64,000 nt of DNA from Nitrospiraceae bacterium (GTDB taxonomy: Bacteria > Nitrospirota > Nitrospiria > Nitrospirales > Nitrospiraceae), in NCBI GenBank assembly GCA_050246315.1, contig JBFWWG010000009.1, forward strand, positions 64,001-128,000, written 5' to 3'. This document shows, in pieces, positions 9,865-55,950 of the stretch (the first letter of the stretch is position 1; each line of letters starts with the position of its first letter). The translations under genes and the position numbers were made by a program. The notes under the pieces were generated by a model. It searched no databases, was not told the DNA's origin, and saw nothing but the letters and a program-made list of their open reading frames with translations.

Positions 9865-10236
9865 CTAACCCGTGCGATTCATGAACGATTCTACGGCAAT
9901 GACGGATTCGCTGCTGCGACGAACCGGGACAGTCGAAGGTGTTTTTCCGGCGGCGTATCAAACAGTGAGGGAGGAACACGCCCGTAGGGTGCTTCTCCGC
10001 AGGCGCTGTTACGGAAATACGATGAATAGCCGACGGTTCAAGCGAAGGTTGGTAGAGAGAGGCTTCGCCTGACAAGCTGCCGGTTCACACGAAGTGTGGT
10101 ATGGCGGGCGGGCTCGCCGCTCAGTCTCTCAACATGCTGTTTCACTTATGCTTCGGGCTATTCACGTCTCCGGGCGTCCGTCTCACGACGTGATTCCATC
10201 ATTTCGTCACGAATCATCATGAATCATGCGGGTTCG
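9865..10236 (+). mobile_element. ~370-bp MITE-like element, copy 1 (diverged)
   Basis: colinear with the reverse complement of 50592-50962; imperfect terminal inverted repeats AACCCGTGCGATTCATGA / TCATGAATCATGCGGGTT. Confidence 0.85.
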
Positions 10237-27546: not shown

Positions 27547-27551
27547 GGGGA

Positions 27552-27724
27552 GGGCTGAACGCTGAGGGCTGAGTGCGGGGTATCGAGGAAGGGCTGAGTG
27601 CTGGGTGCTGAGTGCTGAGGCGGAGAATGAGGAATCCTGCAATGGACAGACGGGTAAGAGCCGAAAATAAGAAGGACGGTGGCAATCAGCGTCGTCTTCA
27701 ACTCAGCACCCAGCACTCAGCACT
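27552..27724. repeat. inverted heptamer arrays (GTGCTGA / TCAGCAC)
   Basis: about 8 degenerate GTGCTGA units, spacer, about 3 TCAGCAC units abutting the ispA stop. Confidence 0.85.
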
Positions 27725-30724: not shown

Positions 30725-30848
30725 GCCGAGAGTCCGGACGCTGCGGCTCCGGATTTGTCTCGCTCCGCGAACTCCGCTAGACTACGCACCACTTTCTGCG
30801 CCGATCGTGCAAATTCATTCACGGCAATCAGGACGATCAACAGGTGGA

Positions 30849-31156
30849 CGGTTCAACCGAGGTTGCTATGGCGAAGAAAGAGAAGAATCACTGGCGGGGT
30901 TCTCCGGCGGAGTATCAAACACTGAAGAAGGGATGCGCCCGTAGGGTGCTTCTCCGTCGGCCCAGTTACGAAAATACGATGAATAGCCGACGGTTCAAGC
31001 GAAGCTTGGTTTCAAAAAACGAAGAGAAGCGAATCACTGGAGGAATTTCTCCGCGGGCGTCGATGAAGAAGGCTGCGCCTGAGGAGCCCGCGGTTCAAGC
31101 GAAGCTTGGTATAGAAGGGCTTCGCCCGATGAGCCGCCGGTTCAACCGAAGGTTGG
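30849..31156 (+). repeat. hairpin-module repeat homologous to the core of the ~370-bp MITE, no TIRs, with a 100-bp internal expansion
   Basis: 30900-31010 and 31111-31156 align with MITE copies; CGGTTCAAGCGAAGCTTGGT repeated at 30991 and 31091. Confidence 0.85.
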
Positions 31157-31169
31157 GATGGAGGGTGGT

Positions 31170-31811
31170 ATGACTGGAGGAGTGGGGCACCGTGTGGGGC
31201 TGTGGGTGTTGACCGTGAGCATCGTTTGTCTTGGGGGATGCGCGGGCAAGGGTGAAGTGGTCAATCTGGACTTGACCATCAAGCCGATGGCGCAGGAAGT
31301 CGCGTCGGATGAGACGGTCAAGATCGTCGTGGAACCATTGCAGGACCAGCGTCCGGATCAGACTCGGTTGGGCATTCGCACGCACCTGACGGGAGGCGCC
31401 ACCTATTTCAGCGTGCCGGGAAACAAGACCGGCGAGGCGGTAGCGCGGACCTTGGCGGACTATTTGCGACATAAGGGGTGGCAGGTCGGGTTTCAGACCG
31501 CCGGGCTGGCCCCGACGGAGGGGAAGACCGACATTCTGATGAGCGGGACCATCCGGAATTTGTGGGCGACGGCCAAGAGCCGTTTCTTCTCGACCAAGAT
31601 GGAAGTGAAGAGCAGCATCGTCGTGCGAGCCCAGAACAACGTGGACGGGAGCGTGGAGAGCATCACACTCGATGGCGCCGCATCCGATACCGTGTGGTTC
31701 TTTACCCAAGCCAAACTGCAAGACCTGGTGAATGCCGTCCTCAAAGATAGCTATCACAAATTAATCATGGATACGCGCATCGAAAATCGCGCATGGCGAC
31801 CCCGGGAATAG
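31170..31811 (+). CDS. YajG-like lipoprotein
   Basis: lipobox LGGC; DQRP motif. Confidence 0.75.
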   Translation: MTGGVGHRVGLWVLTVSIVCLGGCAGKGEVVNLDLTIKPMAQEVASDETVKIVVEPLQDQRPDQTRLGIRTHLTGGATYFSVPGNKTGEAVARTLADYLRHKGWQVGFQTAGLAPTEGKTDILMSGTIRNLWATAKSRFFSTKMEVKSSIVVRAQNNVDGSVESITLDGAASDTVWFFTQAKLQDLVNAVLKDSYHKLIMDTRIENRAWRPRE

Positions 31812-47428: not shown

Positions 47429-47444
47429 GGGTTAGCCGGAAAAT

Positions 47445-47636
47445 AGTGCTAAGTGCTGAGGACTGAGTGCTGAGTAACGCCCGAAAACAGTGCTGGGTGC
47501 TGGGTTGCGACCCAAGGCAGTGCTGAGTGCTGAGGACTCAGTACTGAGGCCAAGGTCATCCGGAATGTCCCCGTCGGTGATGTGCTCATTCCTTCCGTCC
47601 ACCGACTCGACTCAGCACCGAGCACTCAGGATTCAG
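47445..47636. repeat. inverted heptamer arrays (AGTGCTG / CAGCACT)
   Basis: three AGTGCTG clusters at 47445-47548 and an inverted arm at 47604-47636 overlapping the MFP stop. Confidence 0.85.
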
Positions 47637-50415: not shown

Positions 50416-51199
50416 TTACAGTAGCTGGACGATACCGGCCGAGAACGTCCTCAGATCTTCGAGCCGAGCTTGAATGATGTCGTAGATCTCATCGTAGTCG
50501 ATCTTCCAATAGACATGAATCAGGAGATTTCGGAATCGCGCCATCTGCCGAAGGCGATCGGCAAGGTCATGGGAAATAATATCGGTCTGCTCTAGCCCAC
50601 ATTATTCATGATGGTTCGTCACGAAACCGCGAAGTCGCCATGCGAGACGGGCGCGTGGAGATGCGAGGGAGGGAGGCATACTTGAAACAGTATGTTGACC
50701 GACCGAGCAGCGAGCCCGCCCGCCATACCGCACTTCGTGTGAGCCGGCGGCTCATCGGGCATAGTCCCTCTATACGAAGCTTCGCTTGGACCGTCGGCTA
50801 TTCATCGTATTTTCGTAGCTGCGCCGACGGAGAAGCACCCTACGGGCATGTCCCTTCCTCAGTGTTTGATACGCCGCCGGAGAAATCCCTTCGACCGGCC
50901 GGGCTTGTCGTAGCGGCGAATGCCCGGTTGCAGTAGAAGCATTCATGAATAATGTGGGCTAGCGCCGTGAAGCAGGCTGCATACTCTTCCGGAACACGCT
51001 GTAGCTGCTTGGCGGATACGTGAAAGCAGAGGGCCAACGCCGCTTCGATGGCGACCAGCAGTCGGTAACAGGCAATATCCAGCTTGTCTTGGTCCGCCAG
51101 GAATTGTTCACGAGAGCCAGAACGGAATTGTTCCAGCCGCGAAATCGCTGCCTCAATCTCTTCGCAGCGTGACCGAACCAGATCCGGGTTCAGCCTCAT
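50416..51199 (-). pseudogene. hepT: HepT/DUF86 HEPN RNase toxin interrupted by MITE
   Basis: removing 367 bp restores a 138-aa ORF (...ACFTAL|EQTDIISHDLADRLRQMARFRNLLIHVYWKID...) with the RxxxxH motif. Confidence 0.92.
50592..50962 (-). mobile_element. ~370-bp MITE, intact copy (coordinates include both CTAG)
   Basis: perfect 20-bp inverted ends CTAGCCCACATTATTCATGA / TCATGAATAATGTGGGCTAG; inserted at a CTAG inside hepT; no transposase. Confidence 0.95.
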
Positions 51200-51645
51200 C
51201 CTGCGAACGCCTCTGCCGTGCTCCGCCGGAGGAGAGGGGCCAAGTCGAGGTATCGCCGGGCGACATCTTCCAAGGTGGCTGAAAGAAACCTCTCGTCCCG
51301 GCACAGGAGGAGGGATCCTCGGAGCACATGGTAGACGAAGGTCACCGGAGCCTCGTTGAGCACGCGGATGTCGACCGGCAATCCGAGCATTGAAGACAGC
51401 CGATCTTCCAGTTCAGCGGCGATTGACGAACTCCGTCCCGACGCCGACGGATGGAGATAGAGCCCAACGTCCACATCGTGGAACATCGTCTCGCTTAAAC
51501 AGGAACCATACAGATAGGCTACAGTCACCTCCGACTCCTTATCCAATTCGCGACTCAAGCCGGCCTGCAACTGAGCGAGCCGCTCCGTCGTCATCGGATA
51601 GGCCCGAGCGAACCTCGCACCCGTATCCTGCTCGTGGCGGTTCAT
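51196..51645 (-). CDS. mntA: MNT minimal nucleotidyltransferase antitoxin
   Basis: AYLYGS...HDVDVG, VDIRVLNEAP; ATGA overlap with hepT; promoter TTGTTC-N17-TATCAT 6 nt upstream. Confidence 0.88.
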   Translation of the reverse strand: MNRHEQDTGARFARAYPMTTERLAQLQAGLSRELDKESEVTVAYLYGSCLSETMFHDVDVGLYLHPSASGRSSSIAAELEDRLSSMLGLPVDIRVLNEAPVTFVYHVLRGSLLLCRDERFLSATLEDVARRYLDLAPLLRRSTAEAFAG

Positions 51646-55849: not shown

Positions 55850-55950
55850 CGTCAATCGTCAAGCGTCATTCGTCAACAGTAAGGCGAGATCATTATGGTG
55901 CTGATTCCAGCGGTCACCCTCGATTGACGAGTGACCAATGACGATTGACG
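55850..55950. repeat. inverted heptamer arrays (CGTCAAT / ATTGACG)
   Basis: cgtcaat-cgtcaag-cgtcatt-cgtcaac, 45-nt spacer, attgacg-agtgacc-aatgacg-attgacg. Confidence 0.85.

Follow-up and report, generated by a model that had tools for sequence, protein, structure and literature searches.

The nested hairpins at positions 30849-31156 of the window (the whole 64,000-nucleotide stretch of DNA that was analysed) raise the question of what kind of element they form and how it came to lie directly in front of a gene. An earlier note on this DNA had described a structure-selected unit that multiplies by itself and also rides in a TIR MITE, and had left the choice between a substrate of an HUH transposase and a structured RNA. 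The genome under study (Nitrospiraceae bacterium) is referred to below as G000, and the other genomes compared as G001-G004 and higher numbers.

Structure of the focal array

The nested hairpins represent a folded repeat of ~90 bases (the 'unit') in four copies, all on the plus strand. The array starts with a decayed oldest unit, represented by its terminal mini-hairpin and end motif (30851-30871); this first hairpin (30854-30865) has lost one loop base. The outer unit follows with a purine-rich linker, a CACTGGNGG-type motif (30889-30897) and TTCT (together 30872-30903), and then the left arm of its main stem (30904-30910), the partner of which lies at 31133-31140. Nested within it is the inner unit (30911-31010), which begins with a linker and contains a C-GTA-G hairpin (30936-30948), a main stem (30954-30961 with 30986-30993) and a terminal C-GAA-G hairpin (30996-31008); this nested cassette is also present in MITE copies. 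An extra unit of 100 bp (31011-31110) comes next, comprising a linker, a main stem (31051-31058 with 31086-31093) enclosing an inner hairpin with a GNA loop on the minus strand (31070-31080), and a terminal hairpin (31096-31108). It is bounded by an exact 20-bp direct repeat (30991-31010 and 31091-31110) and is missing at the same place in G002 and G003. The right half of the outer unit (31111-31159) completes the array with an inner hairpin, whose GNA loop is again on the minus strand (31117-31127), the right arm, a terminal hairpin (31143-31155) and the end motif. The earlier note had described the three pairs of arms (the outer right arm at 31133/4-31140), the three intact terminal mini-hairpins and the extra module with its direct repeat, and all are present exactly so. 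Its further remarks, that the extra module is absent from both MITE copies of the window and that the locus has no TIRs, also hold, with no MITE-A TIR within 200 bp.

The array abuts the host Shine-Dalgarno (SD) sequence GGAGG (31160-31164, plus strand), which we call its anchor. The gene behind it (31170-31811, plus strand) lies outside the repeat and encodes a conserved probable lipoprotein of 213 aa, which was found in 34 of the 41 genomes searched and has a weak match, below the cut-off, to Pfam Lipoprotein_16. A likely host promoter at 30755-30783 (plus strand) is suggested by a -35-like hexamer at 30755 and a -10-like TAGACT at 30778-30783 with a spacing of 17 bp, and would place the array in the 5' UTR of the downstream gene. 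Several other genera that lack the repeat have a TAGACT-like box, recognized by eye, in front of this gene; a promoter and terminator scan returned no sites, the candidate at 30755-30783 scoring under its threshold. The 109-codon ORF that runs over the array (30844-31173, plus strand) was rejected as a gene, as it has no Pfam match and is not conserved, and its frame is closed after 27-28 codons in G002 and G003. The 312-nt focal stretch folds better than 100 of 100 shuffles (z = -3.3, with RNA and DNA parameters alike). Other short tandem or inverted heptamer-like intergenic repeats, unrelated to the unit family, occur in the window at 27547-27621, 47441-47550 and 55850-55950.

Copy number and covariation of the unit

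With an iterated HMM the genome yielded 161 units, at 97 loci, and its reversed sequence none. Read on the strand of the focal array, the unit consists of a purine-rich linker, the CACTGGNGG-type motif, TTCT or TTAT and an 8-bp main stem that encloses a variable interior, often holding a second hairpin of 4 bp; 3' of the main stem there are two bases, a 5-bp C-GNA-G hairpin and then GTAT. The C-GAA-G mini-hairpin after TTC occurs 28 times genome-wide, compared with 0-6 times for ten other loops.

The stems covary. In an alignment made from sequence only, the four column pairs with the highest corrected mutual information are stem pairs. Over 53 units selected out of 61 extracted, 87.0% of cells pair in the named structure, compared with 74.2% in shuffles (0 of 500 reach the observed value) and 21-43% for slid partners. 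The 78 units from relatives, whose alignment was fitted to the model and is hence biased towards it, are 89.5% paired, with double-sided changes in 13 of 15 pairs. Parsimony on trees of 130 distinct units gave 54 paired-to-paired double changes with all columns and 116 without the stem columns, against 0-5 for slid partners, although mosaic units inflate these counts; steps from non-paired to paired were rare (five, versus 54 double changes). The covariation for which the earlier note had proposed a check is thus strong (87-90% paired; 54-116 double changes versus 0-5). The unit matches no described Rfam family: the window has no match at gathering score, and around the locus there are two chance matches to lncRNAs (E values of 0.3 and 2).

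Landing sites

The loci divide almost evenly between MITEs (49 of 97) and other sites (48 of 97). Outside MITEs, 45 of the 48 loci lie at an SD sequence or at a tRNA or tmRNA gene end and three fit neither class, three rows of this classification having been reassigned by eye. The largest class (27 of 48) abuts an SD sequence followed by a start codon, and the genes concerned are mutually unrelated. At a further 15 loci the unit touches the CCA of an oppositely oriented tRNA or tmRNA gene; two loci abut tRNA end fragments and one abuts the first base of tRNA-Ser(tga). For comparison, on a rough gene call the genome contains ~16,400 intergenic GGNGS sites and 286 GGAGG SD sites. The units are oriented in the sense direction in 5' UTRs and antisense behind tRNAs; orientation follows the host gene and shows no bias towards a single replication-fork strand. 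With first-pass classes, 14 of 18 SD loci have a positive local skew and 11 of 15 tRNA loci a negative one, and MITEs are mixed.

Orthologous sites with and without the repeat indicate which part belongs to the host. An orthologous flank was found in G000 for 42 of 52 SD-anchored loci of relatives, and 15 of these 42 had no HMM match; inspected by eye, the 15 comprised four decayed units, one false SD and two that are a single locus, which leaves nine loci. At all nine, the gene keeps its own SD at about the same spacing. Locus L321 can be compared base by base with its empty counterpart (G000 C11:93744): two units separate a purine tract from the GG of the SD, and nothing is duplicated. This is the sole filled/empty pair that aligns in this way on both sides, and its direction is unrooted. 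Since the empty orthologues have their own SD and the L321 pair shows the same arrangement, the SD belongs to the host and the unit was added 5' of the GG. Neither TIRs nor a target duplication were found when looked for at the unit itself.

Sites at tRNA genes also differ between genomes. The tRNA-Ala gene in the rRNA spacer is filled in G004 and empty in G000 and G001. G001 has a unit behind 12 of its 47 tRNA genes. For five tRNAs whose G000 copies carry arrays, G001 has other, island-like DNA at the site, and in two of these cases its array is located behind a distant tRNA end fragment. The stem sequence of the unit in the rRNA operon spacer of G004 (L069) is unlike all others.

Array turnover and distribution

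The focal locus itself varies between strains: G001 has the terminal hairpin only, G003 one nested cassette, G002 the cassette and a unit at the SD, and G000 the cassette with the internal extra unit. No HMM match was found at 26 homologous loci of the 31170 gene in other genera. Unit number differs between the arrays of strains at many loci. Preservation is best at the anchor: 21 of 27 arrays have an anchor-proximal unit nearer to the consensus than the distal one (p = 6.5e-4), with the proviso that proximal units carry more weight in that consensus. Pairing in the main stem is also more complete in the anchor-proximal unit (171/183 versus 155/184 and 133/156). Arrays at tRNA genes persist at orthologous loci across species and genera, which would also fit a host function.

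The repeat hardly occurs outside a single family, Nitrospiraceae. Of 18 other genomes in the family, 15 have a match to the covariance model, compared with one of 132 genomes from elsewhere, and the unit pattern is present in 87 of 121 family genomes. The single model match outside the family (L110; G073 C189) resembles two real short-type units; the contig, from a genome of 77% completeness, may be misbinned. In an all-species genome scan, Nitrospirota accounts for 79 of the 80 titled loci among the matches listed, and the exception, which is 79-90% identical to contigs of the genome under study, is likely to be a misbinned contig. Collections of phages and plasmids gave no unit match, and viral contigs gave one pattern match, which has no stems and is not scored by the covariance model. 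In distant genera, the copies fetched are mostly linked to tRNA or tmRNA genes or borne by MITEs.

MITE carriers

Two MITE copies in the window carry the nested two-unit cassette, one at 9866-10234 (plus strand) and one at 50593-50961 (minus strand), both of a family that we call MITE-A. The second is inserted in a HepT-like gene: in the region 50420-51304 (minus strand) it splits the HepT-like gene of a nucleotidyltransferase-HepT pair, and the gene piece behind the MITE retains the R-X4-H-X-Y motif. Genome-wide there are two carrier families, with about 111 and 57 TIR pairs, both abundant and modular; the split of the 49 MITE-borne loci between them is imprecise. The carrier role that the earlier note had assigned to a TIR MITE is thus borne out, and its single family becomes two. 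The inner slot of these MITEs holds units or, in other copies, other interchangeable covarying hairpins. A TA dinucleotide lies outside the TIRs at 134 of 204 ends in one carrier family and at 45 of 65 in the other, and both are presumably akin to TA-duplicating IS630-like transposons. No transposase matching the carriers was found, the two IS630-type loci of G000 being without these TIRs. Between them, the copies, the covariation, the non-MITE loci and the MITE copies support the view of a structure-selected unit that multiplies by itself and also rides in MITEs. At locus L348 (G001 C1:2797560-2800811), a tRNA-Gly end fragment is followed by a unit array with a MITE-A inside it; this MITE holds a short unit of its own and has an IS110 copy inside it.

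An account without any dedicated enzyme would let host template switching mirror the arms (hence the covariation), recombination between terminal hairpins alter the arrays, MITEs provide transport and rare microhomology, with a purine tract on the left and GG on the right, seed the SD and tRNA sites. It is the sites that make us regard this as unlikely: homology of 2-5 bases is insufficient for base-precise fusion to 15 different tRNA and tmRNA genes in G000 and to more in relatives, and units are nearly absent from thousands of other intergenic GG sites. The account would nevertheless explain why double changes are frequent and steps from non-paired to paired rare (54 versus 5), why covariation extends to other hairpins of that MITE slot and why as many as 49 of 97 loci are MITE-borne, and it agrees with the finding that no candidate enzyme tracks the repeat.

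DNA or RNA fold

The pattern of single-sided changes was used to ask at which level the unit folds. Changes from Watson-Crick pairs to G-T and to A-C are balanced (60:65 and 65:65 in two tree analyses), so that the tolerance of G-U pairs that a single folded RNA should show is seen on neither strand. The raw counts for the terminal hairpin do lean to minus-strand G-T (A-C 46 versus G-T 15), and 29 of these belong to a single column in one subfamily. In 98 of 130 units it is the plus strand that reads GNA in the terminal loop, and in 66 of 93 it is the minus strand that does so in the inner loop. According to a study of such loops (PMC13037366), C-GNA-G mini-hairpins are far more stable as DNA than as RNA and are found in ssDNA priming signals and in the N4 promoter. 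ViennaRNA energies did not separate the strands and gave no reward for GNA loops, and because they are uninformative the DNA-stability argument relies on that study. The equal rates of G-T and A-C changes and the C-GNA-G loops on both strands favour DNA rather than RNA. We consider it probable that the unit is a selfish repeat acting at the DNA level.

RNA-library contigs from three studies cover parts of the focal array, carrying no information on strand, ends or level, and one of them bridges the array to the gene (30963-31214, with no differences; DNA carry-over is uncontrolled). Joints in the contigs over the array derive from other repeat copies, and no excised form was seen among them.

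These contigs, together with the strong covariation and the persistence of arrays at orthologous tRNA loci across species and genera, would be expected if the unit were a functional structured RNA under host selection, serving as a 5' UTR element and as a processing or stabilizing trailer behind tRNAs. Such an RNA would, however, have to work in the sense direction in 5' UTRs and antisense behind tRNAs, in front of unrelated genes, with no excess of G-U pairs and with triloops typical of DNA; in addition, it has no Rfam family, unit number and order vary among close strains, and distal units decay. The structured RNA of the earlier note is accordingly disfavoured, by the missing G-U excess, by the GNA triloops on both strands and by the opposite orientation to transcription at tRNA genes and in 5' UTRs, and we judge it distinctly unlikely.

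Candidate mobilizing enzymes

The other possibility raised in the earlier note, a REP-like substrate of an HUH transposase (Y1 of the RAYT/TnpA type or Y2 of the IS91 type), was pursued through motifs and genes. The motifs that had been cited prove to be minority variants. The CCCGTAGGG that had been called conserved occurs in only six of 161 units, where GTA is the loop, and a GTAG-like hairpin is likewise present in only six of 161. GGTTCAA occurs in 33 of 161 units, and TTCAA, present in 35 of the aligned units, varies and lies inside the unit. G000 does have eight Y1 matches; they lie 3-69 kb from the nearest unit and have GGGGTCA-type flanks of their own, resembling the TIRYT class. No unit was present in any of the Y1 and Y2 loci fetched, including the eight Y1 loci of G000 at which the earlier note would have led one to look. 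Nor is Y1 presence tied to the repeat, as nine of 22 genomes with at least ten pattern matches have no Y1 (p = 1). Y1 was rejected as the mobilizer on its own flanks, its distance and its independent presence, and Y2 (IS91/ISCR) on its occurrence in six of 121 genomes, none of them of the genus, and the absence of units there. HUH transposition employs one strand, and the GNA loops here are on both. The hairpins, the fixed end, the missing target duplication and the tandem mosaics do recall REP/BIME elements as described in PMC3333891, yet on balance we regard an HUH substrate as very unlikely. Four of the Y1 transposases (L031-L034; 300-330 aa) have GGGGTCA-type inverted-repeat flanks as described for TIRYT genes.

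Several other systems were likewise rejected or left unsupported. IS200/IS605 elements have a fixed terminal TCAA/TTCAA cleavage motif; the internal and variable position of TTCAA, and the finding of TnpB in none of five high-copy genomes, speak against IS200/IS605 or PATE-like ends. IS607 uses a GG core and a serine recombinase; there is no resolvase in G000-G002, and TnpB is again found in none of the five. An IS110 end or bridge RNA was set aside because units occur in two of 19 IS110 loci, and there as flanking arrays. Likenesses to attC, T-box, hammerhead, group II domain V and CsrA-sponge elements, weighed by eye against their consensus, were dropped, as there is no palindrome running from end to end and neither a catalytic nor a GGA motif is conserved. 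When 1107 ORFs from the surroundings of 235 unit loci were clustered and the clusters judged by eye, no mobile-element gene recurred, and the only recurring protein family near these loci is that of sensor kinases.

A retro-element, in which unit RNA ending in UGG would pair with the CC(A) 3' end of a tRNA or of nicked DNA and be reverse transcribed in place, would suit the sharp right end, the ragged left end and the fusion exactly at CCA, but is highly improbable, since tRNA priming leaves the SD, tRNA 5' and MITE sites unexplained and the only two reverse transcriptases of G000, which look DGR-type by neighbourhood, lie 35 and 95 kb from a unit and were rejected as mobilizers. A test for tRNA-primed reverse transcription through encoded CCA is blind here, as every real tRNA gene encodes CCA. 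The two reverse transcriptase genes (L039 and L040; G000 C5:67538-68731 and C3:244931-246037), judged DGR-like by eye, have an accessory-gene-like ORF upstream and template-repeat-like text downstream.

GIY-YIG nucleases at tRNA ends

The search for GIY-YIG genes, also suggested in the earlier note, yielded the best lead to a mobilizer, namely shared CCA junctions in relatives. Within the family, ten of 34 loci with small GIY-YIG genes follow a tRNA or tmRNA gene at a distance of no more than 700 bp. We examined 30 loci of a tRNA-linked clade out of 53 matches to one such protein. At 20 of the 30 the gene stands behind tmRNA (nine loci), tRNA-Ala(cgc) (six) or tRNA-Glu(ctc) (five), with a covarying hairpin fused to the CCA, and these three genes carry the longer arrays in G000 (four, three and six units, respectively). 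At L390-L411 and L418, the GIY-YIG genes encode ~90 aa, and the outer stem of the preceding hairpin includes the CCA and its complement.

By the covariance model, units are present in 13 of the 30 clade loci and in none of the seven among them that have no such hairpin. The clade genes have their own hairpin, and adjoining units occur at variable junctions, mostly behind the nuclease gene. Twice, the unit lies between the CCA and a cassette that is missing its first arm, and both orders are seen (L402 and L409): unit behind the cassette, and unit between the CCA and the truncated cassette. The shared CCA junctions and this interleaving show that both systems write into the same junction.

The cassette hairpin and the unit have no significant sequence likeness, the hairpin being no closer to the units than its own shuffles were in five of six tests, and its core was not found in G000. 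A query from the tRNA-linked clade matched 41 of 371 family genomes, among which are neither G001, G003 nor seven of the eight genomes of a high-copy genus; in G104 and G221 the sole GIY-YIG match is 640 aa long and UvrC-sized. The only small GIY-YIG gene of G000 (L041; C1:181998-182303) is 47% identical and is not tRNA-linked, and a different hairpin repeat, in many tandem copies, flanks it. No nuclease gene with units as its own flanking ends was found, no GIY-YIG cassette was seen at an SD site, and NCBIfam has no specific family for these proteins. PMC11893778 reports that a single-domain GIY-YIG nuclease (Ssn) cuts ssDNA a few bases from its cognate hairpin repeats; the published Ssn (SRM) motif matches none of the 161 units. 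The co-location of GIY-YIG genes and units may merely reflect shared targets. As the opener of new sites, a GIY-YIG nuclease ranks first among the enzymes, though only as a tentative possibility.

A model for spread of the unit

The copies, the covarying stems, the landing sites, the turnover, the best-preserved anchor unit and the one base-precise pair without duplication, all of them observed, lead us to the following reading, which we hold at somewhat below even odds (about 0.45). The unit is a gene-less, family-specific repeat of ~90 bases that would spread as folded ssDNA into sites opened in trans, likely by an Ssn-like GIY-YIG nuclease. Insertion would take place immediately 5' of a host GG, at SD sites and at tRNA or tmRNA gene ends, where units accumulate as tandem and nested arrays, and the fold would matter at the DNA level, on both strands. 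A nick at the anchor junction might be repaired by copying the unit from another locus, with adjacent bases sometimes replaced. Arrays could then grow and shrink through recombination or slippage between the 20-23-bp terminal-hairpin repeats, and MITE-borne units would move passively with the MITE.

A bolder form of this reading, which we find doubtful, is that of a gene-less DNA element that seeks the ends of signals (tRNA 3' and 5' ends, ribosome-binding sites), inserts harmlessly and builds polar arrays by nick-primed copying, parasitizing the tRNA-end GIY-YIG nucleases. If true, it would amount to a transposition route without a transposase or reverse transcriptase, and the element and the nucleases would compete for the same CCA junction.

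Comparison with known repeat systems

The closest parallels were compared as far as the accessible parts of the cited papers go. The NTS/SRM repeats of Ssn (PMC11893778) are alike in being multicopy hairpin repeats with small single-domain GIY-YIG genes at shared loci in relatives, and a fold at the ssDNA level, as we suppose for the unit, would add to the likeness. They differ in that the unit has ~90 nt and three stems, compared with about 28-30 nt for SRM, that 0 of 161 units match the SRM motif and that no nuclease gene was seen to have units as its own ends. The accessible text of PMC11893778 does not mention tRNA (no text matches), nor does it demonstrate movement of the repeats by Ssn.

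REP/BIME and TIR repeats with RAYT/TIRYT (PMC3333891, PMC3733652) share with the unit extragenic covarying hairpins, tandem mosaics and a copy number that varies by strain at one locus. REP/BIME elements with RAYT have a conserved GTAG 5' of the hairpin foot (PMC3333891). The unit has no conserved GTAG or CGTC tag, is arranged head-to-tail rather than in inverted pairs, has no linked Y1 gene and lands at SD and tRNA ends. The tRNA-linked repeats (TLRs) of Escherichia coli also form tandem units directly behind tRNA genes and terminate in an exact 18-19-bp copy of the upstream tRNA or rRNA end (PMC8144298); in the unit no more than the terminal TGG recurs, and a single family is found at many different tRNAs as well as at SD sites and in MITEs. 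Neisseria REP2 and Borrelia IR-A/IR-B (PMC3184786) are alike as TIR-less repeats with internal stem-loops directly upstream of genes. REP2 brings a promoter, RBS and ATG (PMC3184786), whereas the unit uses the host promoter and RBS and also has a tRNA-end class. In MITEs of TA-duplicating transposons, the TIR and TA belong to the carriers; the unit itself has no TIR and occurs at 48 of 97 loci outside MITEs. We found no description of this repeat family in the open-access literature. It works like REP/BIME or SRM repeats, yet it lacks defining features of REP/BIME, SRM, IS ends, TLRs and REP2.

The unit family is a real and unusual structured interspersed DNA repeat whose mechanism can be put forward only as a model. 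It bears on how REP-like hairpin repeats spread and choose their sites, since its own site choice is unusually narrow and harmless and the junctions it uses are shared by a candidate family of nucleases. In a nitrifier, the repeat reshapes the 5' UTRs of ~27 genes along with the trailers of roughly one third of the tRNA genes, in both cases varying by strain. It is also an annotation trap, as it resembles a riboswitch, a small RNA or a short ORF.
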